Source: Escherichia coli (lineage in GTDB: Bacteria > Pseudomonadota > Gammaproteobacteria > Enterobacterales > Enterobacteriaceae). From it: DNA of 64,000 nucleotides. The notes under the pieces are model-generated. The model was not told the origin of the DNA and ran no database searches. It saw nothing but the letters and a program-made list of their open reading frames with translations. Below are positions 3,375 to 58,610 of the stretch, piece by piece. A program made the translations under genes and the position numbers. Every line of letters begins with the position of its first letter. Position 1 is the stretch's first letter. The stretch lies in NCBI RefSeq assembly GCF_030384885.1, contig NZ_CP128613.1; one strand, given 5' to 3'.

Positions 3375-3710
3375 ATGTCATTACCACACTACCCAAAATG
3401 CAACTCCGAATACACCTACGAAGATAACGGCATGTACATCTGCCCGGAATGTGCCTACGAATGGAACGACGCAGAACCTGCACAGGAAAGCGATGAACTG
3501 ATCGTTAAAGATGCTAACGGCAATCTGCTGGCTGACGGCGACAGCGTTACCATCATTAAAGATCTGAAGGTGAAAGGTAGCTCTTCGATGCTGAAGATCG
3601 GTACCAAAGTGAAAAACATTCGCCTGGTTGAAGGCGACCACAACATCGATTGCAAAATCGACGGTTTTGGTCCGATGAAACTGAAATCTGAGTTTGTGAA
3701 AAAGAACTGA
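3375..3710 (+). CDS. yjdM: Zinc-ribbon protein YjdM (PhnA family)
   Basis: 111 aa from ATG 3375 with GAGG RBS; CPKC...CPEC zinc-ribbon motif. The ORF-track 160-aa version is an upstream in-frame extension that I reject. Confidence 0.85.
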
Positions 3711-3744: not shown

Positions 3745-3890
3745 GTAGGCCGGATAAGGCGCTCGCGCCGCATCCGGCTACGGTGCCGACTGCCTGATGC
3801 GACGCTCGCGCGTCTTATCAGGCCTACAAATTCTCGCACCATCCGGCAACGGTGCCTAATGCGACGCTTACCGAGTCTTATCAGCCCCCG
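3745..3890. repeat. REP/BIME cluster (three REP units)
   Basis: Repeated gccggataaggcgctcgcgccgcatccggc and ctgatgcgacgctcgcgcgtcttatcaggcctac palindromic units between yjdM and yjdN. Confidence 0.85.
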
Positions 3891-4448: not shown

Positions 4449-4470
4449 CTGTTAGTCACTTTTAGTTAAC
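4449..4470 (+). promoter_or_regulatory. Pho box (PhoB site) of the phnC promoter
   Basis: CTGTTAGTCAC-TTTTAGTTAAC resembles tandem CTGTCAT-type 7-bp repeats with A/T spacer, about 55-75 bp upstream of the phnC ATG. Confidence 0.6.
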
Positions 4471-4525
4471 AAAATCGTCACGATAATCCGCCACGATGGA
4501 GCCACTTTTTTAGGGAGGCTGCATC

Positions 4526-5314
4526 ATGCAAACGATTATCCGTGTCGAGAAGCTCGCCAAAACCTTCAATCAGCATCAGGCGCTGCATGCGGTTGATCTG
4601 AACATTCATCACGGTGAAATGGTAGCTCTGCTTGGGCCGTCCGGTTCCGGCAAATCCACCCTTTTACGTCATTTAAGCGGTTTGATTACCGGCGATAAAT
4701 CTGCCGGTAGCCATATCGAGCTGCTGGGCCGCACAGTCCAGCGCGAAGGCCGCCTGGCCCGCGATATCCGCAAAAGCCGCGCCAACACCGGCTACATCTT
4801 CCAACAATTCAACCTGGTGAATCGCCTGAGCGTACTGGAGAACGTGCTGATTGGCGCGCTCGGCAGCACGCCATTCTGGCGCACCTGTTTTAGCTACTTC
4901 ACCCACGAGCAGAAACAGCGCGCGTTACAGGCGCTGACCCGCGTTGGCATGGTGCACTTTGCCCATCAGCGCGTTTCCACCCTCTCCGGCGGACAGCAGC
5001 AGCGTGTGGCGATTGCCCGTGCGCTGATGCAGCAGGCGAAGGTGATTCTGGCGGACGAACCGATCGCCTCGCTGGACCCGGAATCGGCCCGCATCGTGAT
5101 GGATACCCTGCGCGACATCAACCAGAACGACGGCATCACCGTGGTGGTGACGCTGCATCAGGTGGATTACGCCCTGCGCTATTGCGAACGCATCGTCGCC
5201 CTGCGCCAGGGGCACGTCTTCTACGACGGCAGCAGCCAACAGTTTGACAACGAACGTTTTGACCATCTCTACCGCAGCATCAACCGCGTCGAAGAAAACG
5301 CGAAAGCTGCCTGA
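4526..5314 (+). CDS. phnC: Phosphonate ABC transporter ATP-binding protein
   Basis: 262 aa; Walker [13 protein letters not shown] signature LSGGQQQR; GGGAGG RBS. Confidence 0.95.
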
Positions 5315-5338
5315 CATCCCCATCATTGAGGAAAACGA

Positions 5339-6355
5339 ATGAACGCTAAGATAATTGCCTCGCTGGCCTTCACCAGCATGTTCAGCCTCAGCACCCTGTT
5401 AAGCCCGGCGCACGCCGAAGAGCAGGAAAAGGCGCTGAATTTCGGCATTATTTCAACGGAATCACAGCAAAACCTGAAACCGCAATGGACGCCGTTCTTA
5501 CAGGATATGGAGAAGAAGCTGGGCGTAAAGGTCAACGCCTTCTTTGCCCCGGACTACGCGGGCATTATCCAGGGGATGCGCTTCAATAAAGTGGATATCG
5601 CCTGGTACGGCAACCTGTCGGCAATGGAAGCAGTGGATCGCGCCAACGGTCAGGTCTTCGCCCAGACGGTCGCGGCGGATGGATCGCCGGGTTACTGGAG
5701 CGTGTTGATCGTCAACAAAGACAGTCCGATCAACAACCTGAACGATCTGCTGGCGAAGCGTAAAGATCTCACCTTTGGCAATGGCGATCCTAACTCCACC
5801 TCTGGCTTCCTCGTCCCCGGCTACTACGTCTTCGCCAAAAACAATATCTCCGCCAGCGACTTCAAGCGCACCGTCAACGCCGGGCATGAAACCAACGCGC
5901 TGGCCGTCGCCAACAAGCAGGTGGATGTGGCGACCAACAACACCGAGAACCTCGACAAGCTGAAAACCTCCGCACCGGAGAAGCTCAAAGAACTGAAGGT
6001 GATCTGGAAATCGCCGCTGATCCCAGGCGATCCGATCGTCTGGCGCAAAAATCTTTCCGAAACCACCAAAGACAAGATCTACGACTTCTTTATGAACTAC
6101 GGCAAAACGCCGGAAGAGAAAGCGGTGCTGGAGCGCCTGGGCTGGGCCCCGTTCCGCGCCTCCAGCGACCTGCAACTGGTGCCGATTCGCCAGCTCGCGC
6201 TGTTTAAAGAGATGCAGGGCGTGAAAGGCAATAAAGGGCTGAATGAGCAGGACAAGCTGGCAAAAACCAGCGCCATTCAGGCGCAACTGGATGACCTGGA
6301 CCGCCTGAACAACGCGTTAAGCGCGATGAGTTCGGTGAGTAAAGCGGTGCAGTAA
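5339..6355 (+). CDS. phnD: Phosphonate ABC transporter periplasmic binding protein
   Basis: 338 aa with N-terminal signal peptide ending AHA-EE; operon position. Confidence 0.95.
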   Translation: MNAKIIASLAFTSMFSLSTLLSPAHAEEQEKALNFGIISTESQQNLKPQWTPFLQDMEKKLGVKVNAFFAPDYAGIIQGMRFNKVDIAWYGNLSAMEAVDRANGQVFAQTVAADGSPGYWSVLIVNKDSPINNLNDLLAKRKDLTFGNGDPNSTSGFLVPGYYVFAKNNISASDFKRTVNAGHETNALAVANKQVDVATNNTENLDKLKTSAPEKLKELKVIWKSPLIPGDPIVWRKNLSETTKDKIYDFFMNYGKTPEEKAVLERLGWAPFRASSDLQLVPIRQLALFKEMQGVKGNKGLNEQDKLAKTSAIQAQLDDLDRLNNALSAMSSVSKAVQ

Positions 6356-6367
6356 TGTGCTCGATCG

Positions 6368-6462
6368 GTCCCCTCTCCCTTGAGGGAGAGGGTTAGGGTG
6401 AGGGGGAAATGCGCACGCTGGTGCCCTCACCCCGGCCCTCTCCCACAGGGAGAGGGAGAAAA
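6368..6462. repeat. GC-rich imperfect-palindrome intergenic repeat (boxC-like), phnD-phnE spacer
   Basis: cccctctccc-ttg-agggagagggttagggtgaggg and ccctcaccccggccctctccc-acag-ggagagggagaaaa modules. Confidence 0.6.
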
Positions 6463-6480
6463 CATTAAACGGAGCCAAAC

Positions 6481-7260
6481 ATGCAAACCATCACCATTGC
6501 CCCACCCAAGCGCAGCTGGTTCTCGATCTTCAGCTGGGCCGTTGTTCTCGCTGTACTGGTCGTCTCGTGGCAGGGCGCGGAAATGGCCCCGCTCACGCTG
6601 ATCAAAGACGGCGGCAACATGGCAACATTCGCCGCCGACTTCTTCCCGCCCGATTTCAGCCAGTGGCAGGATTACCTCACCGAAATGGCCGTCACGCTGC
6701 AAATCGCCGTCTGGGGCACTGCGCTGGCAGTCGTTCTCTCCATCCCCTTCGGCCTGATGAGCGCCGAAAACCTGGTGCCGTGGTGGGTGTACCAGCCCGT
6801 GCGCCGTCTGATGGACGCCTGCCGCGCCATTAACGAAATGGTCTTCGCCATGCTGTTCGTGGTCGCCGTCGGTCTCGGGCCGTTCGCTGGCGTGCTGGCG
6901 CTGTTTATTCACACCACCGGCGTGCTTTCCAAACTGCTTTCCGAAGCGGTGGAAGCGATTGAACCCGGCCCGGTGGAAGGTATTCGCGCCACTGGTGCCA
7001 ACAAGCTCGAAGAGATCCTCTACGGCGTGCTGCCGCAGGTGATGCCGCTGCTGATCTCCTACTCCCTCTATCGCTTCGAATCCAACGTCCGTTCGGCCAC
7101 CGTTGTTGGCATGGTCGGCGCTGGCGGGATCGGCGTCACGCTGTGGGAAGCGATTCGCGGTTTCCAGTTCCAGCAAACCTGCGCCCTGATGGTGCTGATT
7201 ATCGTCACGGTCAGCCTGCTGGATTTCCTCTCTCAACGGTTGCGTAAGCACTTTATCTGA
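6481..7260 (+). CDS. phnE: Phosphonate ABC transporter permease (uninterrupted reading frame)
   Basis: 259-aa hydrophobic multi-TM ORF with no internal stop or frameshift. Confidence 0.9.
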
Positions 7261-7280
7261 TAAGCGAGGCATTGATATCT

Positions 7281-8006
7281 ATGCACTTGTCTACACATCC
7301 GACCAGCTACCCAACACGCTATCAGGAGATAGCCGCAAAACTTGAGCAGGAGCTTCGTCAACACTACCGCTGCGGCGACTATCTTCCCGCCGAGCAGCAA
7401 CTGGCAGCGCGCTTTGAGGTGAATCGCCACACCCTGCGCCGTGCCATCGACCAACTGGTGGAAAAAGGCTGGGTACAGCGCCGTCAGGGCATCGGCGTAC
7501 TGGTGCTGATGCGCCCGTTCGATTACCCGCTCAACGCCCAGGCGCGTTTTAGCCAGAACCTGCTGGACCAGGGCAGCCATCCCACCAGCGAAAAACTGCT
7601 GTCGGTGCTGCGCCCCGCGTCCGGCCACGTCGCTGACGCGCTGGGGATCGCCGAGGGCGAGAACGTTATCCACCTGCGCACCCTGCGCCGGGTCAACGGC
7701 GTCGCGCTCTGTTTAATCGACCACTACTTTGCGGACCTCACCCTCTGGCCGACGCTGCAACGTTTCGACAGCGGCTCGCTGCACGATTTTCTGCGTGAGC
7801 AAACGGGGATTGCGCTGCGCCGCAGCCAGACGCGGATCAGCGCCCGCCGCGCCCAGGCCAAAGAGTGCCAGCGTCTTGAAATTCCGAATATGTCGCCGCT
7901 GCTGTGCGTGCGCACCCTTAACCACCGTGACGGTGAAAGCAGCCCGGCGGAGTACTCCGTCAGCCTGACGCGCGCCGACATGATTGAATTCACCATGGAG
8001 CACTGA
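7281..8006 (+). CDS. phnF: GntR-family transcriptional regulator of phosphonate operon
   Basis: 241 aa from ATG 7281; N-terminal GntR-type HTH region. Confidence 0.9.
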   Translation: MHLSTHPTSYPTRYQEIAAKLEQELRQHYRCGDYLPAEQQLAARFEVNRHTLRRAIDQLVEKGWVQRRQGIGVLVLMRPFDYPLNAQARFSQNLLDQGSHPTSEKLLSVLRPASGHVADALGIAEGENVIHLRTLRRVNGVALCLIDHYFADLTLWPTLQRFDSGSLHDFLREQTGIALRRSQTRISARRAQAKECQRLEIPNMSPLLCVRTLNHRDGESSPAEYSVSLTRADMIEFTMEH

Positions 8007-8459
8007 ATGCACGCAGATACCGCGACCCGCCAGCACTGGATGTCCGTGCTGGCGCACAGCCAACCGGCTGAACTGGCAGCCCGCCTGAAGGCGCTGAACA
8101 TCACCGCCGACTATGAGGTGATCCGCGCCGCTGAAACCGGCCTGGTACAGATTCAGGCGCGAATGGGTGGCACCGGCGAACGCTTTTTTGCCGGCGATGC
8201 CACGCTCACCCGCGCCGCCGTACGCCTGACTGACGGCACGCTCGGCTACAGCTGGGTGCTGGGGCGCGACAAACAGCACGCCGAACGCTGCGCGCTGATT
8301 GACGCGCTGATGCAGCAATCTCGCCACTTTCAAAACTTATCAGAAACCCTTATTGCCCCGCTGGACGCTGACCGTATGGCACGCATTGCCGCACGCCAGG
8401 CCGAAGTGAACGCCAGTCGGGTCGACTTCTTTACGATGGTTCGCGGAGACAACGCATGA
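8007..8459 (+). CDS. phnG: C-P lyase core complex subunit PhnG
   Basis: 150-aa ORF in conserved operon order. Confidence 0.9.
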
Positions 8460-9040
8460 CCCTGGAAACCGCTTTTATGCTTCCCGTGCAGGATGCCCAG
8501 CACAGTTTTCGTCGCCTGTTAAAGGCCATGAGCGAGCCGGGCGTGATTGTCGCCCTGCATCAGCTCAAACGCGGCTGGCAGCCGCTGAATATCGCCACCA
8601 CCAGCGTGCTGCTCACGCTGGCCGATAACGACACGCCGGTGTGGCTTTCCGCGCCATTAAGTAACGATATCGTCAGCCAGAGCCTGCGTTTTCATACCAA
8701 CGCCCCGCTGGTCAATCAGCCGGAACAGGCGACCTTCGCAGTGACGGATGAGGCGATTACCAGCGAGCAGCTCAACGCCCTTTCCACCGGCACCGCCGTT
8801 GCGCCGGAAGCCGGTGCGACGTTGATTTTACAGGTCACCAGCCTGAGCGGCGGACGCATGCTGCGCCTCACCGGCGCGGGTATTGCCGAAGAACGGATGA
8901 TCGCCCCGCAACTGCCGGAGTGCATTCTGCACGAACTCACCGAGCGCCCGCACCCGTTCCCGCTCGGCATCGACCTGATCCTGACCTGCGGCGAGCGCCT
9001 GCTGGCTATTCCGCGAACCACTCTTGTGGAGGTGTGCTGA
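8456..9040 (+). CDS. phnH: C-P lyase core complex subunit PhnH
   Basis: 194-aa ORF; start overlaps phnG stop (translational coupling). Confidence 0.9.
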
Positions 9041-10104
9041 TGTACGTTGCCGTGAAAGGGGGCGAGAAGGCGATCGACGCCGCCCACGCCCTGCAAGAGA
9101 GCCGACGCCGGGGCGATACCGATTTGCCTGAACTGAGCGTCGCCCAGATTGAACAGCAGCTTAATCTCGCGGTGGATCGCGTGATGACCGAAGGCGGCAT
9201 TGCCGACCGCGAACTGGCCGCACTGGCGCTGAAACAGGCCAGTGGCGATAACGTTGAAGCAATTTTCCTGCTGCGCGCCTACCGCACGACGCTGGCAAAA
9301 CTGGCGGTAAGCGAGCCGCTCGACACCACCGAGATGCGTCTCGAACGCCGTATCTCCGCCGTTTATAAAGACATTCCTGGCGGCCAGTTGCTTGGCCCGA
9401 CCTACGACTACACCCATCGCCTGCTGGATTTCACCCTGCTGGCGAATGGCGAAGCGCCGACGCTGACCACCGCCGACAGCGAGCAAGCCCCATCGCCGCA
9501 CGTTTTCAGCCTGCTGGCGCGTCAGGGGCTGGCGAAGTTTGAAGAGGATAGCGGCACACAGCCGGATGACATCACCCGCACGCCGCCGGTTTACCCCTGC
9601 TCACGCTCCTCCCGCCTGCAGCAGCTCATGCGCGGAGACGAAGGCTATTTGCTGGCGCTGGCCTACTCCACCCAGCGTGGTTACGGACGCAATCACCCGT
9701 TCGCAGGCGAAATCCGCAGTGGCTATATCGACGTCTCTATTGTGCCGGAAGAGCTGGGATTTGCGGTGAACATCGGCGAACTGCTGATGACCGAGTGTGA
9801 AATGGTCAACGGTTTTATCGACCCGCCGGATGAGCCGCCGCACTTCACGCGCGGCTACGGGCTGGTGTTCGGCATGAGCGAGCGCAAAGCGATGGCAATG
9901 GCGCTGGTTGACCGCGCTCTACAAGCCCCGGAGTACGGCGAGCACGCGACAGGCCCGGCGCAGGATGAAGAGTTCGTGCTGGCGCATGCCGACAACGTCG
10001 AAGCCGCAGGCTTTGTCTCGCACCTCAAACTCCCGCACTACGTCGATTTCCAGGCCGAGCTGGAGCTACTCAAACGTCTGCAACAGGAGCAGAACCATGG
10101 CTAA
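9040..10104 (+). CDS. phnI: C-P lyase subunit PhnI
   Basis: 354 aa from ATG 9040 overlapping the phnH stop (ATGA... overlap); ORF-track version is N-terminally extended. Confidence 0.9.
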   Translation: MYVAVKGGEKAIDAAHALQESRRRGDTDLPELSVAQIEQQLNLAVDRVMTEGGIADRELAALALKQASGDNVEAIFLLRAYRTTLAKLAVSEPLDTTEMRLERRISAVYKDIPGGQLLGPTYDYTHRLLDFTLLANGEAPTLTTADSEQAPSPHVFSLLARQGLAKFEEDSGTQPDDITRTPPVYPCSRSSRLQQLMRGDEGYLLALAYSTQRGYGRNHPFAGEIRSGYIDVSIVPEELGFAVNIGELLMTECEMVNGFIDPPDEPPHFTRGYGLVFGMSERKAMAMALVDRALQAPEYGEHATGPAQDEEFVLAHADNVEAAGFVSHLKLPHYVDFQAELELLKRLQQEQNHG

Positions 10105-10942
10105 TCTGAGCGGCTACAACTTTGCCTACCTCGACGAGCAGACCAAACGCATGATCCGCCGCGCCATCTTAAAAGCGGTGGCGATCCCCGGCTATCAGGT
10201 GCCGTTTGGCGGGCGCGAGATGCCGATGCCGTACGGCTGGGGAACCGGCGGCATACAGCTTACTGCCAGCGTGATTGGTGAAAGCGACGTGTTGAAGGTG
10301 ATTGACCAGGGCGCGGATGACACCACCAACGCGGTGTCGATTCGCAACTTCTTTAAGCGCGTGACCGGGGTAAACACCACTGAACGTACGGATGATGCGA
10401 CGCTTATCCAGACGCGCCACCGCATCCCCGAAACGCCACTGACCGAAGATCAGATCATTATCTTCCAGGTGCCGATCCCGGAACCGCTGCGCTTTATCGA
10501 GCCGCGCGAAACGGAGACCCGCACCATGCACGCGCTGGAGGAGTACGGCGTGATGCAGGTGAAGCTGTATGAAGATATCGCCCGCTTCGGTCATATCGCC
10601 ACCACCTACGCCTATCCGGTGAAGGTGAACGGGCGCTACGTCATGGACCCATCGCCGATCCCGAAATTCGATAACCCGAAAATGGACATGATGCCCGCCC
10701 TGCAGCTGTTCGGCGCAGGGCGCGAGAAGCGCATCTATGCGGTGCCGCCGTTTACCCGCGTGGAAAGTCTCGATTTCGACGATCACCCGTTCACCGTTCA
10801 GCAGTGGAATGAGCCATGCGCCATCTGCGGATCGACCCACAGCTATCTCGACGAAGTGGTGCTGGATGACGCCGGAAACCGCATGTTTGTCTGCTCCGAT
10901 ACCGATTATTGCCGCCAACAGAGCGAGGCGAAAAGCCAATGA
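10097..10942 (+). CDS. phnJ: C-P lyase catalytic subunit PhnJ
   Basis: 281 aa from ATG 10097; C-terminal Cys cluster CAICGS...CSDTDYC. Confidence 0.9.
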   Translation: MANLSGYNFAYLDEQTKRMIRRAILKAVAIPGYQVPFGGREMPMPYGWGTGGIQLTASVIGESDVLKVIDQGADDTTNAVSIRNFFKRVTGVNTTERTDDATLIQTRHRIPETPLTEDQIIIFQVPIPEPLRFIEPRETETRTMHALEEYGVMQVKLYEDIARFGHIATTYAYPVKVNGRYVMDPSPIPKFDNPKMDMMPALQLFGAGREKRIYAVPPFTRVESLDFDDHPFTVQQWNEPCAICGSTHSYLDEVVLDDAGNRMFVCSDTDYCRQQSEAKSQ

Positions 10943-11697
10943 ATCAACCGTTACTTTCGGTCAATAACCTGACCCACCTCTACGCACCGGGCAAAGGCTT
11001 CAGCGACGTTTCTTTTGATTTATGGCCGGGGGAAGTGCTGGGCATCGTCGGGGAATCCGGCTCCGGGAAGACCACGCTGCTGAAATCAATCTCCGCGCGC
11101 CTGACGCCGCAGCAGGGGGAGATTCACTATGAAAACCGTTCCCTCTATGGCATGAGCGAGGCCGACCGCCGTCGCCTGCTGCGCACCGAATGGGGCGTGG
11201 TGCATCAGCATCCGCTCGACGGCCTGCGCCGTCAGGTGTCAGCAGGCGGCAATATCGGCGAACGGCTGATGGCGACCGGGGCGCGTCATTACGGCGATAT
11301 TCGCGCCACCGCGCAGAAGTGGCTGGAAGAGGTGGAGATTCCCGCCAACCGTATCGACGATCTGCCGACCACTTTTTCCGGCGGCATGCAGCAGCGTTTG
11401 CAGATTGCCCGCAACCTGGTGACGCATCCGAAGCTGGTGTTTATGGACGAGCCAACCGGCGGGCTGGATGTGTCAGTGCAGGCACGCCTGCTCGACCTGC
11501 TGCGCGGTCTGGTGGTGGAGCTGAACCTGGCGGTGGTGATTGTCACCCATGATTTGGGCGTCGCCCGCCTGCTGGCGGACCGTTTGCTGGTGATGAAACA
11601 GGGTCAGGTGGTGGAGAGTGGGTTAACCGACCGCGTACTCGACGACCCACATCATCCGTATACCCAGTTGCTGGTGTCATCGGTTTTGCAGAATTGA
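10939..11697 (+). CDS. phnK: C-P lyase-associated ABC-type ATPase PhnK
   Basis: 252 aa; Walker A GESGSGKTT; start overlaps phnJ stop. Confidence 0.9.
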   Translation: MNQPLLSVNNLTHLYAPGKGFSDVSFDLWPGEVLGIVGESGSGKTTLLKSISARLTPQQGEIHYENRSLYGMSEADRRRLLRTEWGVVHQHPLDGLRRQVSAGGNIGERLMATGARHYGDIRATAQKWLEEVEIPANRIDDLPTTFSGGMQQRLQIARNLVTHPKLVFMDEPTGGLDVSVQARLLDLLRGLVVELNLAVVIVTHDLGVARLLADRLLVMKQGQVVESGLTDRVLDDPHHPYTQLLVSSVLQN

Positions 11698-11720
11698 GTT
11701 GCAACACTTTGCGCACTGAT

Positions 11721-11830
11721 CCCCTCACCCCGGCCCTCTCCCGGAGGGAGAGGGAGAAAACCGGCGCAATATTCAACACCGTGCACAAGCGGTCCCCTCG
11801 CCCCTTTGGGGAGAGGGTTAGGGTGAGGGG
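11721..11830. repeat. Second copy of the boxC-like repeat, phnK-phnL spacer
   Basis: Same two modules as at 6368-6462 but in swapped order. Confidence 0.6.
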
Positions 11831-11874
11831 CAATGTGCGCACCGCTCCCAAACATGCGAACCACGAGGCGAAAA

Positions 11875-12555
11875 ATGATTAACGTACAAAACATCAGTAA
11901 AACCTTCATCCTGCACCAACAAAACGGCGTGCGTCTGCCTGTATTACAACGCGCCTCGCTCACCGTCAACGCAGGCGAATGCGTGGTGCTCCACGGTCAC
12001 TCCGGCAGCGGCAAATCAACTCTGCTACGCTCGCTGTACGCCAACTATCTGCCCGACGAAGGGCAAATCCAGATCAAACACGGTGACGAATGGGTAGACC
12101 TGGTCACCGCGCCAACGCGCAAAGTGGTGGAAATCCGCAAAACCACTGTCGGCTGGGTAAGCCAGTTTCTGCGCGTCATCCCGCGTATTTCGGCACTGGA
12201 AGTGGTGATGCAGCCGCTGCTCGATACCGGCGTTCCGCGTGAAGCCTGCGCCGCTAAAGCCGCCCGATTACTGACGCGCCTGAACGTGCCTGAACGCCTG
12301 TGGCACCTGGCACCATCGACCTTCTCCGGCGGCGAACAGCAGCGCGTCAACATCGCCCGTGGCTTTATCGTCGACTATCCGATTCTGCTGCTGGATGAAC
12401 CCACCGCCTCGCTGGACGCTAAAAACAGCGCCGCCGTAGTGGAACTGATCCGCGAAGCCAAAGCCCGTGGCGCAGCCATCGTCGGCATCTTCCATGACGA
12501 AGCCGTACGCAATGACGTCGCCGACCGCCTGCACCCAATGGGAGCCTCTGCATGA
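11875..12555 (+). CDS. phnL: C-P lyase-associated ABC-type ATPase PhnL
   Basis: 226 aa from ATG 11875; Walker [10 protein letters not shown], signature FSGGEQQR. Confidence 0.9.
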
Positions 12556-13688
12556 TTATCAATAACGTCAAACTGGTGCTGGAAAACGAAGTGGTGCACG
12601 GTTCACTGGAAGTACAGGACGGTGAAATCCGCGCCTTTGCCGAAAGCCAGAGCCGCCTGCCAGAGGCGATGGACGGCGAAGGCGGCTGGCTGCTGCCGGG
12701 GCTGATTGAGCTGCATACCGACAACCTCGATAAATTCTTCACTCCGCGCCCAAAAGTGGACTGGCCTGCCCACTCGGCGATGAGCAGCCACGACGCGCTG
12801 ATGGTGGCGAGCGGCATCACCACCGTGCTGGATGCCGTGGCGATTGGCGACGTGCGCGACGGCGGCGATCGGCTGGAGAATCTGGAGAAGATGATCAACG
12901 CCATCGAAGAGACGCAGAAACGCGGGGTCAACCGCGCCGAGCACCGTCTGCACCTGCGTTGCGAACTGCCGCATCACACCACGCTGCCGCTGTTTGAAAA
13001 ACTGGTGCAGCGCGAACCGGTGACGCTGGTATCGCTGATGGACCACTCGCCGGGCCAGCGCCAGTTCGCCAATCGCGAGAAGTATCGCGAATATTACCAG
13101 GGCAAATACTCGCTCACCGATGCGCAGATGCAGCAGTACGAAGAGGAACAGCTGGCGCTTGCCGCACGCTGGTCGCAGCCGAATCGCGAAACCATCGCCG
13201 CAATATGCCGCGCGCGACAAATTGCCCTCGCCAGCCACGATGACGCCACGCGCGCGCACGTTGCCGAATCCCACCAGCTTGGCAGCGTAATCGCCGAATT
13301 TCCCACCACGTTCGAAGCGGCGGAAGCTTCGCGCAAGCATGGCATGAATGTATTGATGGGCGCGCCGAATATTGTGCGCGGCGGTTCGCACTCCGGCAAC
13401 GTGGCGGCCAGTGAACTGGCACAGCTTGGTCTGCTGGATATCCTCTCTTCCGACTACTACCCCGCCAGCCTGCTCGATGCGGCATTTCGCGTCGCCGATG
13501 ACGAGAGCAACCGCTTTACTCTGTCGCAGGCGGTGAAGCTGGTGACCAAAAATCCGGCGCAGGCGCTTAATCTTCAGGATCGCGGGGTGATTGGCGAGGG
13601 CAAACGCGCCGACCTGGTGCTGGCGCATCGCAAGGGCAACCACATTCATATCGATCACGTCTGGCGTCAGGGTAAAAGGGTGTTCTGA
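12552..13688 (+). CDS. phnM: Amidohydrolase-family phosphonate metabolism protein PhnM
   Basis: 378-aa ORF; start overlaps phnL stop. Confidence 0.9.
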
Positions 13689-14245
13689 TGACGGGAAAAC
13701 TGATTTGGTTAATGGGGGCCTCTGGCTCCGGAAAAGACAGTCTGTTGACGGAACTCCGCCAGCGGGAACAAACTCAGCTACTGGTAGCGCATCGCTACAT
13801 CACGCGCGCCGCCAGCGCCGGAAGTGAAAACCATATCGCCCTGAGCGAGCAGGAGTTTTTTACCCGCGCGGGGCAGAACCTTCTGGCCTTAAGCTGGCAC
13901 GCCAACGGCCTGTATTATGGCATCGGCGTCGAGATTGACCTCTGGCTGCACGCTGGATTTGACGTGGTGGTCAACGGCTCACGCGCCCATCTACCGCAGG
14001 CGCGGGCGCGCTATCAATCGGCGCTGCTGCCCGTTTGTTTACAGGTTTCGCCAGAGATCCTGCGCCAGCGCCTGGAAAACCGTGGCCGTGAAAACGCCAG
14101 TGAAATTAACGCCCGCCTGGCGCGTGCGGCCCGCTATACTCCACAGGATTGCCATACGCTCAACAATGACGGCAGCCTGCGCCAGTCGGTCGACACGCTG
14201 CTGACGCTGATTCATCAGAAGGAGAAACACCATGCCTGCTTGTGA
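13688..14245 (+). CDS. phnN: Ribose 1,5-bisphosphate phosphokinase PhnN
   Basis: 185 aa; P-loop GASGSGKDS. Confidence 0.9.
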
Positions 14246-14666
14246 GCTTCGTCCGGCCACGCAGTACGACACCGACGCGGTTTACGCGCTGATTTGTGAG
14301 CTAAAACAGGCGGAGTTTGACCACCACGCGTTTCGCGTGGGGTTTAACGCCAATCTGCGCGACCCGAACATGCGCTACCATCTGGCGCTGCTGGATGGCG
14401 AAGTTGTCGGCATGATCGGCCTGCATTTGCAGTTTCATCTGCATCATGTCAACTGGATCGGCGAAATTCAGGAACTGGTGGTGATGCCGCAGGCGCGCGG
14501 TCTGAACGTCGGCAGTAAATTACTGGCATGGGCCGAAGAAGAAGCCCGCCAGGCCGGGGCCGAAATGACCGAGCTTTCCACCAACGTCAAGCGCCACGAC
14601 GCGCACCGTTTCTATCTGCGCGAAGGCTACGAGCAGAGCCACTTCCGCTTCACCAAGGCGCTGTAA
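14232..14666 (+). CDS. phnO: Aminoalkylphosphonate N-acetyltransferase PhnO (GNAT)
   Basis: 144-aa ORF; operon position. Confidence 0.9.
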
Positions 14667-14667
14667 C

Positions 14668-15426
14668 ATGAGCCTGACCCTCACACTTACTGGCACTGGC
14701 GGCGCACAGGGTGTTCCCGCATGGGGCTGTGAGTGCGCGGCCTGCGCCAGAGCGCGGCGCTCACCGCAGTATCGCCGCCAGCCATGCAGCGGCGTCGTGA
14801 AGTTTAACGACGCGATCACCCTGATCGACGCCGGGCTGCACGATCTCGCCGATCGCTGGTCGCCCGGATCGTTCCAGCAGTTTTTGCTGACGCACTACCA
14901 TATGGATCACGTGCAGGGGCTGTTTCCGCTGCGCTGGGGCGTGGGCGATTCGATCCCGGTCTACGGCCCGCCGGATGAACAGGGCTGCGACGATCTGTTT
15001 AAACATCCGGGCCTGCTTGATTTCAGCCACACGGTGGAGCCATTTGTGATGTTTGATTTGCAGGGATTACAGGTCACGCCGCTGCCGCTCAACCATTCGA
15101 AACTCACTTTCGGCTATCTACTGGAAACGGCACATAGCCGGGTGGCGTGGCTGTCTGACACCGCAGGCCTGCCGGAAAAAACGGTGAAATTTTTACGCAA
15201 TAATCAGCCACAGGTAATGGTGATTGATTGCAGCCACCCACCGCGCGCGAATTCGCCACGCAATCACTGTGATTTAAACACCGTGCTGGCGCTGAATGAA
15301 GTTATCCGCTCGCCGCGCGTGGTTCTGACACATATCAGCCATCAGCTTGATGTGTGGCTGATGGAGAACGTACTGCCGTCAGGGTTTGAGGCGGGGTTTG
15401 ATGGGATGGAGATTGGGGTGGAGTGA
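14668..15426 (+). CDS. phnP: Phosphodiesterase PhnP (metallo-beta-lactamase fold)
   Basis: 252 aa; HxHxDH motif [10 protein letters not shown]. Confidence 0.9.
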
Positions 15427-15858: not shown

Positions 15859-16176
15859 TCAATTTTTCCGCTGCTCTATTGCCGTAATCGCCTCCACGCG
15901 TTGTTGATGACGACCGCCTTCGTACTGCGCGCCCAGCCACACATCCACAATCATTTTTGCCAGTTCGAGGCCAACCACTCGTGAACCAAAAGCCAGTGCA
16001 ACTTCACTGGCGTAATGCGGATAATCAGTGCGCTCTGACGACCTGGTTTCTTTATCAATCCCCTCACTCATTGACCATGAATAAAAGGCTGGCACAGCAA
16101 CGCAGAATCCTGCGGTGCCAGCGACATGACCGCCCATTGCTCCGGTACGTTTTTTAATAAGAAACACCGGTTGCAT
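15859..16176 (-). pseudogene. rpiB: rpiB remnant (ribose-5-phosphate isomerase B, internally deleted)
   Basis: 105-aa ORF whose C-terminal ~55 aa (FGSRVVGLELAKMIVD...QRVEAITAIEQR) match the RpiB C-terminus as I remember it, while the N-terminal part does not and the central catalytic segment is missing. Confidence 0.55.
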
Positions 16177-16428
16177 TGATTAATTGTGCTCAGTATTTGC
16201 CGAAGTACAATATATATAATAAATATATAAAACACCTCATATTATTTACAGAAATAATAAATTCGCGTACTTTTCCCTCTTCAGCACAAATGCCTAATAA
16301 AATGGCTCGTTCCGCTCACACTTCCACTTATTAAAGTCGCAAATTCCCAATTATGATAACGCCAGCTTTAAATGACGTATTTTGCATGGATTACATATTT
16401 ACGACATAAATGATAAATGGAGATTTAT

Positions 16429-23659: not shown

Positions 23660-25807
23660 ATGAAAAAAGTCGTCACGGTTTGCCCCTATTGCGCATCAGG
23701 TTGCAAAATCAACCTGGTCGTCGATAACGGCAAAATCGTCCGGGCGGAGGCAGCGCAGGGGAAAACCAACCAGGGTACCCTGTGTCTGAAGGGGTATTAT
23801 GGCTGGGACTTCATTAACGATACCCAGATCCTGACCCCGCGCCTGAAAACCCCCATGATCCGTCGCCAGCGTGGCGGCAAACTCGAACCTGTTTCCTGGG
23901 ATGAGGCACTGAATTACGTTGCCGAGCGCCTGAGCGCCATCAAAGAGAAGTACGGTCCGGATGCCATCCAGACGACCGGCTCCTCGCGTGGTACGGGTAA
24001 CGAAACCAACTATGTAATGCAAAAATTTGCGCGCGCCGTTATTGGTACCAATAACGTTGACTGCTGCGCTCGCGTCTGACACGGCCCATCGGTTGCAGGT
24101 CTGCACCAATCGGTCGGTAATGGCGCAATGAGCAATGCTATTAACGAAATTGATAATACCGATTTAGTGTTCGTTTTCGGGTACAACCCGGCGGATTCCC
24201 ACCCTATCGTGGCGAATCACGTAATTAACGCTAAACGTAACGGGGCGAAAATTATCGTCTGCGATCCGCGCAAAATTGAAACTGCGCGCATTGCTGACAT
24301 GCACATTGCACTGAAAAACGGCTCGAACATCGCGCTGTTGAATGCAATGGGCCATGTCATTATTGAAGAAAATCTGTACGACAAAGCGTTCGTCGCTTCC
24401 CGTACAGAAGGCTTTGAAGAGTATCGTAAAATCGTTGAAGGCTACACGCCGGAGTCGGTTGAAGATATCACCGGCGTCAGCGCCAGTGAGATTCGTCAGG
24501 CGGCGCGGATGTATGCCCAGGCGAAAAGCGCCGCCATCCTGTGGGGCATGGGTGTAACCCAGTTCTACCAGGGCGTGGAAACCGTGCGTTCTCTGACCAG
24601 CCTCGCGATGCTGACCGGTAACCTCGGTAAGCCGCATGCGGGTGTAAACCCGGTTCGTGGTCAGAACAACGTGCAGGGTGCCTGCGATATGGGCGCGCTG
24701 CCGGATACGTATCCGGGATACCAGTATGTGAAAGATCCGGCTAACCGCGAGAAATTCGCCAAAGCCTGGGGCGTGGAAAGCCTGCCTGCTCATACCGGTT
24801 ATCGCATCAGCGAGCTGCCGCACCGCGCAGCGCATGGTGAAGTGCGTGCCGCGTACATTATGGGCGAAGATCCGCTACAAACTGACGCGGAGCTGTCGGC
24901 AGTACGTAAAGCCTTTGAAGATCTGGAACTGGTCATCGTCCAGGACATCTTTATGACTAAAACCGCATCAGCGGCGGACGTTATTTTACCGTCCACCTCG
25001 TGGGGCGAGCATGAAGGCGTGTTTACTGCGGCTGACCGTGGCTTCCAGCGTTTCTTCAAGGCGGTTGAACCGAAATGGGATCTGAAAACGGACTGGCAGA
25101 TTATCAGTGAAATCGCCACCCGTATGGGTTATCCGATGCACTACAACAACACCCAGGAGATCTGGGACGAGTTGCGTCATCTGTGCCCGGATTTCTACGG
25201 TGCGACTTACGAGAAAATGGGCGAACTGGGCTTCATTCAGTGGCCTTGTCGCGATACTTCAGATGCCGATCAGGGGACTTCTTATCTGTTTAAAGAGAAG
25301 TTTGATACTCCGAACGGTCTGGCGCAGTTCTTCACCTGCGACTGGGTAGCGCCAATCGACAAACTCACCGACGAGTATCCGATGGTACTGTCAACGGTGC
25401 GTGAAGTCGGTCACTACTCTTGCCGTTCGATGACCGGTAACTGTGCGGCACTGGCGGCGCTGGCTGATGAACCTGGCTACGCACAAATCAATACCGAAGA
25501 CGCCAAACGTCTGGGTATTGAAGATGAGGCATTGGTTTGGGTGCACTCGCGTAAAGGCAAAATTATCACCCGTGCGCAGGTCAGCGATCGTCCGAACAAA
25601 GGGGCGATTTACATGACCTACCAGTGGTGGATTGGTGCCTGTAACGAGCTGGTTACCGAAAACTTAAGCCCGATTACGAAAACGCCGGAATACAAATACT
25701 GCGCCGTGCGCGTCGAGCCGATCGCCGATCAGCGCGCCGCCGAGCAGTACGTGATTGACGAGTACAACAAGTTGAAAACTCGCCTGCGCGAAGCGGCATT
25801 GGCGTAA
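23660..25807 (+). CDS. fdhF: Formate dehydrogenase H, selenocysteine-containing (in-frame UGA at 24077-24079)
   Basis: ORF-track ORFs 23660-24079 and 24128-25807 are in the same frame, separated only by TGA; N-terminal Cys cluster CPYCASGC; total 715 codons. Confidence 0.95.
24080..24122 (+). promoter_or_regulatory. SECIS element (selenocysteine insertion stem-loop) of fdhF
   Basis: Stem-loop-forming sequence cacggcccatcggttgcaggtctgcaccaatcggtcgg immediately 3' of the in-frame TGA. Confidence 0.85.
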
Positions 25808-48365: not shown

Positions 48366-48517
48366 GTTCGTGTCTCCTGAAAAAAAATCGTTCTGAATAA
48401 GTGTAAACGCGCGATTGTACCATTACCAATAGCGCTTTTACTATGTTGTGACCTCGGTTCAGGGAAACAAACCTGGCCAGGCATTGTTACACAACACTCC
48501 GGGTAATGCATTCCAAT

Positions 48518-54608: not shown

Positions 54609-54689
54609 GCGATGGTTCTCCAGGTTTACGGGCAGGTGGTTAAACCACAATAAACCGGAAGAAGGCGAAGATCGAGTGGATGTTCAAAG

Positions 54690-55694
54690 TCAGTCGGGAA
54701 GTTGATGAAGAATTTGCCCCAGTCGCTCTTGCAGCGAACCCGAAACCGAAAGATAAGGAATGTTCCTGCGCGATAATTCCTGTTCGTACCACGCCTGCTG
54801 CCGCGCGCGAAACGCCTCTCCTTGCCGGGTGCCATCCTGCACAAAGGGAAATTCCGCGCCGCAAAGCACCACCAGAGAGTATTCCCGCTCCGCCAGCTGG
54901 TGAAGTTCCTTCGGGGCATGACCATATTGATCAAGGGTATAGAACAAGGTCGTGAGTGGCGATGTGTCACATATAAGATAGCGATTAGCTTCTGCTTGTT
55001 GTTCCCGACGTACCTGTTCGCGGGCGATATGCAACAAATCGTCTGCGGTTAAAACACCATTTTTCTCTTCCCAATAGTCGCGACCAAATTCAGCGACATA
55101 CGCCGTGTCGAGCACGTCCGCCAGCGCTTTTGAAAGTGTGCTCTTACCGGTTGATTCGCCACCAAGCAGACAGATACGGCGAACGAAACTGCGATAAACG
55201 TCGTGCGCCAGCATGTAACGATAGCGGTGAACGTCGGAACGAATCAGCGTTCCCGAAGGAGATTTATCGCCAAGTGGACGCTGTAATCGAATGTGTTCAA
55301 CAGGTTGGGCAAAACGCTTTGTCAGCACTTTAGCAAAACCGTCACCATAATCTTCTGCGGTAAATACAGCGTGTGGGCGGCAATGTAATACCTGCAGGCA
55401 CAGCGTCGCCACATAATGACGATGGATGTCGGCATCGGCATCATTATGCGGTATGGCAGGTAAGTTATAACGCGCGATCAGTTCGGGAGTCAGTACCAGA
55501 ACCGTCGCTCGCGGGAAGCTCACTTGCAGCCACGTCAGGCGCTTTTCAGGTTCACAGTCAGGCATTTCCGGCACGGAATAACTGATGATGAACAGTTCTT
55601 CACATTGTGCCAGCGCGGTATTGATCAACCGTTCATGACCACAATGCAAAGGCGCGAATTTGCCAACCACCAGTCCCGTTACGAAAGGCTTCAT
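54690..55694 (-). CDS. NadR-like bifunctional NMN adenylyltransferase / ribosylnicotinamide kinase lacking the N-terminal HTH domain
   Basis: About 334 aa from ATG 55692-55694; nucleotidyltransferase motif GKFAPLHCGH; Walker A GGESTGKST followed by EFGRDYW, resembling the E. coli NadR catalytic domains as I recall them. Confidence 0.7.
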   Translation of the reverse strand: MKPFVTGLVVGKFAPLHCGHERLINTALAQCEELFIISYSVPEMPDCEPEKRLTWLQVSFPRATVLVLTPELIARYNLPAIPHNDADADIHRHYVATLCLQVLHCRPHAVFTAEDYGDGFAKVLTKRFAQPVEHIRLQRPLGDKSPSGTLIRSDVHRYRYMLAHDVYRSFVRRICLLGGESTGKSTLSKALADVLDTAYVAEFGRDYWEEKNGVLTADDLLHIAREQVRREQQAEANRYLICDTSPLTTLFYTLDQYGHAPKELHQLAEREYSLVVLCGAEFPFVQDGTRQGEAFRARQQAWYEQELSRRNIPYLSVSGSLQERLGQILHQLPD

Positions 55695-56248
55695 GATGCC
55701 CGCAGCTCCTTGCGCCACTGATACAAACCATGCCAGGCGTTAATCCAGAACAGGAAATATAAACCGGCGGTCAAGTTTAAACCACGCGTCATATACAGTG
55801 GCACCGCCAGGGTATTCACTGCTAACCAGACGTACCAGTTTTCGATACGTCTTCCCATCAACATGAATTGTGCCAGAACGCTGAAGGTCAAAATCAACGA
55901 ATCCAGCCAGGGGGCCCAGGCATTGGTAAAGGTGTGGAGCAAAAAGCCGTAGCCACCTGCCACGACGACGGCACAGAGCAACAAGAGGAAAAAGTGACTG
56001 GCTTGCGTCCGGCGCACCGGCAAGACATCGCCACCCTGACCTTTCAGCCAGTGGATCCAACCGATGATGCTGGTTGCGATGAAGAATAACTGGAGCGTGA
56101 CATCGGCATAGAGTTGCACGGACCAAAAAACCCAGCCATACAGCATGCTACCAATTATGCCGATCCACCACGTATGCACATTGTTTCTGGCGGCCAGCCA
56201 GACGGAAACCGCGTATGCCAGACACGCGGCGATTTCTGAATAAGACAT
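55691..56248 (-). CDS. PnuC-family nucleoside (nicotinamide riboside-type) transporter
   Basis: 185-aa polytopic ORF with PnuC-like motifs QLYADVTLQLFF and ENWYVWL; GGGAGGG RBS; stop overlaps the start of the NadR-like gene. Confidence 0.7.
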   Translation of the reverse strand: MSYSEIAACLAYAVSVWLAARNNVHTWWIGIIGSMLYGWVFWSVQLYADVTLQLFFIATSIIGWIHWLKGQGGDVLPVRRTQASHFFLLLLCAVVVAGGYGFLLHTFTNAWAPWLDSLILTFSVLAQFMLMGRRIENWYVWLAVNTLAVPLYMTRGLNLTAGLYFLFWINAWHGLYQWRKELRAS

Positions 56249-56270
56249 TGTCCCTCCCTGGAGACGGGTA

Positions 56271-57350: not shown

Positions 57351-57476
57351 TTGTGTTCCTTTTTTTCAGGTTCTGCCCACCCGTGCAAAACCTCGCTAAA
57401 CAGATAGGACCGGAGTATGCTATTCCACATCCAGGGATGGGTTTATAAACGGCAAGATGATATCGGATTTTCAGCC

Positions 57477-58037
57477 ATGACAAAGATAAAATTTGTTTTC
57501 TTTTTTCTGCTAATCGCAGGTATAACGCCTGCCGCGACGGGGGCTTGCCCGGCGCAGACACCTGACGGTGTCGCAGATAAGTTTTACTCAACCTATGTTT
57601 TTTCTGATACCAGCTTTAAGAGTGAAAAAGACCAGCTGGCATTTTTTCAGAAATACCTCACCCCCTCGCTTTATCAACTGATTGTTGGCGCGTATGACAG
57701 AAATAAACGCGACTACGCCATCGATCCCACGGCCAAACCTACTTTTGGTGACGGGATTATTTTCACGTCTTATCCTTCGGATAGTTACTATGAGAAATTT
57801 GATGGCGTGACACTACCGTCATCGTATAAACCTGGTGATAACAACGTCACTGTCGCCCTCCATTTTCATTTTACCGTTGATGATAAAAAGGCCTGGCAGG
57901 ACGAAGCGCTAATGGCGCGTTCCGCTGATGATGGCTGTTGGCGGATCGACAATATCATATTCCACGAAGACGAAGATAACTCGGTTCTGAGCCTTAAAGA
58001 GTGGCTAAAAAAAGGGATTGAAAGTCCGGCGGAATAA
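57477..58037 (+). CDS. Hypothetical secreted protein (signal peptide, two Cys); alternative start 57417
   Basis: 186 aa from ATG 57477 (MTKIKFVFFFLLIAGITPAATGA...); no family recognised. Confidence 0.55.
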   Translation: MTKIKFVFFFLLIAGITPAATGACPAQTPDGVADKFYSTYVFSDTSFKSEKDQLAFFQKYLTPSLYQLIVGAYDRNKRDYAIDPTAKPTFGDGIIFTSYPSDSYYEKFDGVTLPSSYKPGDNNVTVALHFHFTVDDKKAWQDEALMARSADDGCWRIDNIIFHEDEDNSVLSLKEWLKKGIESPAE

Positions 58038-58082
58038 AGCAGTTCAACGAACTCAGGAAAAGCATTTTACAAGGAGATAGTA

Positions 58083-58610
58083 ATGACCCCAGACCTGGAA
58101 CTACTCAAAAACAAACGTAATCAAATTAAAGAAATCATTGATGAGCTACAGCTTACATTAACCGACGATCCAAATTGGGATGCCCCTTCTGATAACAGTT
58201 ATTTAAATGAAGAAGAACTCGCCATCCCTGAAATTCAGGATAATGTGACGGCAATAAAGGCGACGAATAAATTAATCAGCTGGTTTGGGCAAGATCATGA
58301 AGGTTTTGTCGGCTTATGGCGAGGTCCCAATGCGATCCCCCTCGATAAAGCGCAAGTGGTTCGGCTGAATGATGAAGCTAACTATGAACTAGTCGCCGAT
58401 ACCGTGCCCAATTACCTGATGTTCACCTATTTTTATGGCGATGAAGATACTGAACAACATGAATACAATCGTGTTAAAAAATTACTGACTGATGCAGGAT
58501 TCACCGTTGCTGGCGACATAGAAGCTATCTATGACAATATTGATTACGATAGTCTTCAACCTGAAGATTATAAAGAAGAGCAATATAATCAGGCCCAATC
58601 CCGCCGATAA
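58083..58610 (+). CDS. Hypothetical acidic cytoplasmic protein
   Basis: 175-aa ORF with strong AAGGAG RBS 7 nt upstream; D/E-rich and AT-rich by eye; no family recognised. Confidence 0.6.
   Translation: MTPDLELLKNKRNQIKEIIDELQLTLTDDPNWDAPSDNSYLNEEELAIPEIQDNVTAIKATNKLISWFGQDHEGFVGLWRGPNAIPLDKAQVVRLNDEANYELVADTVPNYLMFTYFYGDEDTEQHEYNRVKKLLTDAGFTVAGDIEAIYDNIDYDSLQPEDYKEEQYNQAQSRR

Follow-up and report, generated by a model that had tools for sequence, protein, structure and literature searches.

The phosphonate permease gene phnE is uninterrupted in the 64-kb stretch of Escherichia coli DNA analysed here (the window), and it very probably encodes a full-length, wild-type PhnE whose internal repeat tract is in the 'on' configuration. 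Because phnE is in frame and the 13 other phn genes are intact as well, the strain, like E. coli B, should be able to use phosphonates when the Pho regulon is induced. Nothing in the window sequence was found to speak against the wild-type reading of PhnE. An intact phnE is an already known and common state in E. coli, and the 8-base frameshift of the K-12 gene is the exception.

The ORF starts with ATG, runs through 259 sense codons with no internal stop and ends with TGA, as seen in the ORF list and its translation (Table 1). An earlier, sequence-only reading had described phnE as an uninterrupted gene of 259 codons, and both its coordinates and its codon count proved exact. In a profile search, the predicted protein scored 311.4 bits (E=4.2e-93) against TIGR01097, the NCBIfam equivalog for PhnE, which has a curated cut-off of 216.7 bits; the match runs from residue 15 to 258 of the protein and spans positions 7-251 of the 252 in the profile. 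The binding-protein-dependent transport inner-membrane domain (PF00528, BPD_transp_1) was recognized in residues 88-258 with 91.8 bits (E=6e-26). Given these two scores, the ORF is not open by chance. Furthermore, the DNA of E. coli 2013C-4282 (NZ_CP027579.1) is identical over the whole gene and is annotated there by RefSeq as phnE (WP_001193492.1). An antisense ORF of 281 aa covers all of phnE (6427-7272, minus strand). A Pfam search at E<=0.1 gave nothing for it, and GC-rich codon usage most likely explains its presence; it is not considered a gene.

Clear hydrophobic segments were found at about residues 12-30, 75-93, 125-143 and 233-251 with a Kyte-Doolittle scan of 19 residues, while helices are also expected in the less hydrophobic region 185-225, which stays under the threshold of that scan. 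An EAA-type cytoplasmic loop was located at residues 154-185. Its spacing deviates from the textbook EAA motif, for which a strict regular expression finds no match in PhnE; the loop was therefore identified from the Pfam alignment and by inspection. A sequence search of solved structures found none of PhnE itself, and the nearest relatives there are MetI-type permeases, which are distant. For instance, MetI, the permease of the methionine ABC importer (PDB 3dhw, 6cvl), is the transmembrane domain of a type I ABC importer and shares the BPD_transp_1 core with PhnE residues 125-254, but the similarity is remote (E=6e-6) and the substrate is another one. In the window, phnE follows phnC, which encodes its ATPase partner, and phnD, which encodes the binding protein, and nine other genomes have the same neighbours.

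The feature that separates this gene from its K-12 ortholog is the number of copies of an octamer near the middle of the ORF. In K-12 (the MG1655-derived strain MGY), phnE is 788 bp long and carries the RefSeq flag of a 'frameshifted' pseudogene, and the tract consists of three tandem octamers, GCTGGCGT-GCTGGCGT-GCTGGCGC (L002, 3406-3429). Two copies are present in the window, in BL21 and in isolate AF40. When the four genes are aligned, the sole indel is an 8-bp block at ORF nucleotides 406-413, found in K-12 only. Translation of the K-12 gene from its ATG departs from PhnE after residue 141, ahead of the EAA-type loop, and stops at codon 190. The cryptic K-12 allele, phn(EcoK0), is otherwise the orthologous gene in the orthologous operon, and the flanks of its repeat tract are identical to those in the window; it differs by the extra GCTGGCGT unit, hence its length of 788 bp and its frameshift. 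The arrangement that characterizes phn(EcoK0), three GCTGGCGY octamers at ORF nucleotides 406-429, is absent in the window, where two copies leave the frame open. A weak terminator-like match at 6885-6903 corresponds to the octamer repeat followed by TGTTTATT; it lies in coding sequence and was not taken as functional.

These observations agree with what is known about K-12, which is cryptic because its phnE contains an inserted or duplicated 8-bp unit; growth returns when this unit is lost (PMC6469041, PMC3463581, PMC4759930). The original sources for the cryptic gene are Makino et al. 1991 and Iqbal et al. 2004, as they are cited in PMC6469041. In K-12 phnE revertants, the GCTGGCGT unit at ORF positions 407-414 is lost via slippage (PMC6469041). 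The sequence-only reading had mentioned the 8-bp insertion of K-12, which the alignment, the RefSeq pseudogene flag and the literature (PMC6469041, PMC3463581) identify as the third tandem octamer; compared with BL21 PhnE, the product of the window is neither truncated nor frameshifted.

The closest point of reference for function is PhnE of E. coli B, whose phn operon is the experimentally phosphonate-proficient reference (PMC3463581). BL21 PhnE (WP_001193500.1) and the window's PhnE share 257 of 259 residues; the two differences, L16I and L17F, are neighbouring, conservative changes within the first hydrophobic segment. When one octamer is removed in silico from K-12 phnE, the product is identical to BL21 PhnE, and the window again differs only at these two positions. 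In general, E. coli B/BL21 and the K-12 revertant, phn(EcoK+), resemble the window in having a gene for 259 aa with a two-octamer tract, located between phnD and phnF. At the nucleotide level, the BL21 gene differs from that of the window at about 36 mostly synonymous positions (95.4% identity); the count in codons is 32 synonymous and 2 non-synonymous differences from BL21, and 32-34 against 2 when the in-silico K-12 revertant is also considered. The same trend is observed more widely. An index of public assemblies holds this 259-aa sequence, without any change, in 1138 blocks, and nine complete genomes with the same protein were compared with the window. Their genes differ from that of the window by 16-37 nucleotides and no amino acid is changed, which indicates purifying selection on a phnE that presumably works.

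The operon holds all of its 14 cistrons, from phnC through phnP, in the reference order on the plus strand (4526-15426), each as long as in K-12 and free of internal stops. For 13 of the proteins a comparison with K-12 is possible, and their amino-acid identity ranges from 94.8% (PhnP) to 100% (PhnO). Among the substitutions, those in PhnJ presumably miss the cluster and radical residues of the published active site (C241, C244, C266, C272 and G32), and those in PhnP presumably miss the metal-binding histidines and aspartates.

Table 1. Positions of the phn genes and of associated or predicted elements in the window.
Feature	Position	Strand	Length	Basis or remark
Pho-box-like heptamer array, CTGTTAG TCAC TTTTAGT TAAC AAAATCG TCAC GATAATC	4449-4488	+		5' of phnC; alignment
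phnC, ATP-binding subunit	4526-5314	+	262 aa	Intact; 98.5% amino-acid identity to K-12
phnD, periplasmic phosphonate-binding protein	5339-6355	+	338 aa	Intact
phnD-phnE intergenic region	6356-6480	+	125 bp	GC-rich nested palindromic dispersed repeat
Shine-Dalgarno GGAG	6471-6474	+		Six bases 5' of the phnE ATG; read from sequence
phnE, phosphonate ABC transporter permease	6481-7260	+	259 aa	ORF, translation, TIGR01097, PF00528, identical annotated DNA
Two tandem octamers, GCTGGCGT-GCTGGCGC	6886-6901	+		Codons 136-141, PFAGVLAL; alignment, copy count
phnF, GntR-family regulator	7281-8006	+	241 aa	Intact
phnG	8007-8459	+	150 aa	Intact, K-12 length
phnH	8456-9040	+	194 aa	Intact, K-12 length
phnI	9040-10104	+	354 aa	Intact, K-12 length
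phnJ	10097-10942	+	281 aa	Intact, K-12 length
phnK	10939-11697	+	252 aa	Intact, K-12 length
phnK-phnL intergenic region	11698-11874	+	177 bp	Same repeat type; 110 bp in K-12
phnL	11875-12555	+	226 aa	Intact, K-12 length
phnM	12552-13688	+	378 aa	Intact, K-12 length
phnN	13688-14245	+	185 aa	Intact, K-12 length
phnO	14232-14666	+	144 aa	Intact, K-12 length
phnP	14668-15426	+	252 aa	Intact, K-12 length
Rfam gathering-level matches	3748-3824, 37099-37170, 24072-24126, 44423-44563	+, -, +, +

Of the 137 bp 5' of phnC, 134 are the same as in K-12, and the other three, all substitutions, fall in the Pho-box-like heptamer array. By comparison with the K-12 phnC promoter, we take this array to be a Pho box, that is, a putative PhoB site; the PhoB and PhoR genes are outside the 64-kb window. 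The window's version of the 137 bp is found exactly in 28 complete genomes. In the phnD-phnE and phnK-phnL gaps, the window has a GC-rich palindromic repeat, which we take to be Box C-like and whose arms are CCCTCTCCC..GGGAGAGGG and GGGTGAGGG..CCCTCACCC, where K-12 and BL21 hold structured REP-type sequence. Between phnD and phnE, BL21 therefore carries another repeat element than the window does. The full form of the palindromic repeat occupies the phnD-phnE site in 351 of 5426 genomes, and relatives of it occur at other loci (for example, K-12 MGY 164540-164646). For the phnD-phnE repeat, folding predicts a long hairpin in the mRNA (-73.1 kcal/mol, z -6.7). Its end is about 12 nt 5' of the phnE Shine-Dalgarno, and a weak outermost helix of the fold touches the GGAG. 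A consensus scan predicted no intrinsic-terminator-like site on the plus strand in either gap, and at Rfam gathering thresholds no RNA family was found inside the phn operon. Elsewhere in the window, the Rfam matches at this level are those expected for the region, namely two naRNA4 (REP325-type), the fdhF SECIS and the sraL sRNA. The suggestion, made from the sequence at first reading, that the whole phnC-P C-P lyase operon looks functional is supported as far as sequence can do so, because all 14 genes are intact and no terminator-like site lies in the gaps.

A frame that is open does not by itself make an active operon, and the features just described could be read as signs of a silent or impaired one, in a strain that would be Phn- in spite of its intact ORF. 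Candidate causes would be the three Pho-box-like substitutions relative to K-12, the strong hairpin elements between phnD and phnE (close to the phnE Shine-Dalgarno) and between phnK and phnL, and the neighbouring L16I and L17F exchanges in the first hydrophobic segment. Nevertheless, such an impairment is quite improbable. The upstream region is common to 28 genomes and the phnD-phnE element to 351, structured REP-type sequence occupies both gaps in K-12 and BL21 too, and the hairpins are not followed by a terminator-like T-run. With respect to the protein, I/L and F/L exchanges are conservative in a membrane helix, and PhnE remains unchanged across the 16-37 synonymous differences seen elsewhere. 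An even less credible explanation, so weak that it can practically be set aside, is that an error of sequencing or assembly collapsed a three-copy tract to two and so produced the intact frame. Short tandem repeats are prone to miscalls, and the three single-base indels that distinguish the window from 2013C-4282, at least one of them in a homopolymer, hint at sequencing noise in one of the two sequences. However, a tract of 16-24 bp is far shorter than any read, the two independent sequences agree over phnE, and about 4380 other complete genomes are likewise without the third copy.

It could also be argued that a reversible switch based on frequent slippage operates in this lineage too and that the two copies represent its 'on' phase; the intact ORF would then show a population at one moment rather than a fixed state. 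The tract in the window is the near-perfect tandem octamer of K-12 minus one unit, natural alleles with two, three and four copies exist, and slippage and reversible phase variation in K-12 are attributed to Iqbal et al. 2004 as cited in PMC6469041, PMC3463581 and PMC4759930. This reading is nonetheless unlikely. Two copies give less repeat to misalign than three, 2013C-4282, a near-twin assembled independently, has two as well, and the record totals described below (999 and about 1012) suggest an off allele spread mostly by descent in one clade. Whether considered for this strain or for wild E. coli in general, the octamer tract is only doubtfully a genuine contingency locus, with the window's strain in the 'on' phase; if it were one, the switch would trade the scavenging of phosphonate or phosphate against some cost of PhnE. 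A full-length, wild-type phnE is the preferred reading, and the two-octamer tract keeps its frame open. One unit gained by replication slippage would turn the gene off, as in K-12.

The frequency of the two states was estimated in complete E. coli genomes, 5391 of 5426 of which have phnE at a coverage of at least 80%. Tracts of at least three octamers were counted with a 37-mer query that matches only these, as a two-copy tract offers it no exact word of 28 bases. At a coverage of at least 80%, this query was found in 1010 of 5426 genomes (19%; about 1012 records); therefore, approximately 81% of complete genomes, that of the window included, are without the insertion. The sequence-only reading had set the intact gene against K-12 in a way that implied it to be unusual, and this implied contrast is misleading: intact phnE is unremarkable, because it is the majority state of the species.

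A K-12-like phnE, sharing at least 99% identity with the 788-bp gene, occurs in 999 records. This is nearly the number counted for tracts of at least three octamers (about 1012 records), which suggests that the off allele is for the most part passed on by descent in a single K-12-like clade and does not arise repeatedly across the species; the comparison of the two record sets is one of totals. The off allele is not a laboratory-only one either, because most of its sampled carriers are human, animal or environmental isolates: in an evenly spaced sample of 59 rows from the matches with at least three octamers, about 16 were judged by name and source, and roughly, to be K-12 or laboratory strains, and the remaining rows were such isolates. 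By a rough count based on this sampled match list, about 14% of complete genomes would be non-laboratory isolates with the off allele. A longer tract occurs in wastewater isolate SW07163, which has four octamers (L009, 506-537) and is also frameshifted. In several lineages (L010, L011, L012, L014 and L018), a synonymous GTG to GTA change at phnE nucleotide 414 (GCTGGCGTACTGGCGC) breaks the tandem octamer and the encoded PhnE is identical to that of the window; in L012 there is an extra GGC to GGA change. This interruption of the repeat should lower slippage.

The window as a whole belongs to an ordinary E. coli from a thinly sampled lineage. Its closest relative is 2013C-4282, from human stool in the USA, with 99.98% identity over 64 kb (9 mismatches and 3 one-base gaps), and this is the only complete genome with at least 99% identity to the window for phnE, phnG-K or mdtOP. 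The next-best genomes reach about 98.3-98.5% for phnG-K and mdtOP, and examples for phnE are at 97.1-97.9%. Compared with K-12, identity is approximately 96.5% overall and 94.1-94.6% across the phn operon.

Some other differences were observed along the window. The zinc-ribbon gene yjdM (phnA), 5' of the phn operon (3375-3710, plus strand), has A at base 3391 where 2013C-4282 has G. The resulting C6Y change removes the first Cys of the CPKC...CPEC zinc-ribbon motif, a residue that K-12 and 2013C-4282 both encode, and is either a likely loss-of-function missense or a sequencing error. One of the three indels relative to 2013C-4282 is an A8 homopolymer instead of A7 at 48379-48386, in the ssb-uvrA intergenic region just 5' of ssb. 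At 15996-16205, about 0.2 kb replaces about 6.8 kb of K-12 (alsR, alsBACEK and the 5' part of rpiB), and the D-allose operon is absent from the strain; an rpiB remnant of 105 aa, of the RpiB/LacA/LacB family, adjoins yjdP (15859-16176, minus strand). Extra with respect to K-12 are an AAA-family ATPase and the nicotinamide riboside transporter pnuC between tyrB and alr (~54687-56269) and two hypothetical proteins between alr and dnaB (~57362-58635), while K-12 yjbS is absent in the window region. The last 600 bp (63375-63984) are about 70% identical to K-12 and fall in a DUF2713-family gene; the annotations of 2013C-4282 and K-12 both mark this gene as frameshifted.

The biological meaning of an intact phnE follows from the pathway in which it takes part, the roles of PhnCDE and PhnG-P being taken from family assignments and established pathway knowledge. 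PhnE is the membrane permease of a type I ABC importer in which phosphonate is bound by PhnD in the periplasm and PhnC is the subunit that hydrolyses ATP; alkylphosphonates would enter the cell through it. PhnG-P convert the imported alkylphosphonate, via ribosyl intermediates, into phosphate and alkane. PhnCDE also imports orthophosphate (PMC6469041). The population figures for the octamer add modest detail to a well-described story, and the significance of the result is very small; its use lies in the annotation of the strain and in metabolic modelling, where K-12 is an atypical reference at phnE. With an intact gene, the strain should be able to use alkylphosphonates and to take up phosphate via PhnCDE without prior mutation.
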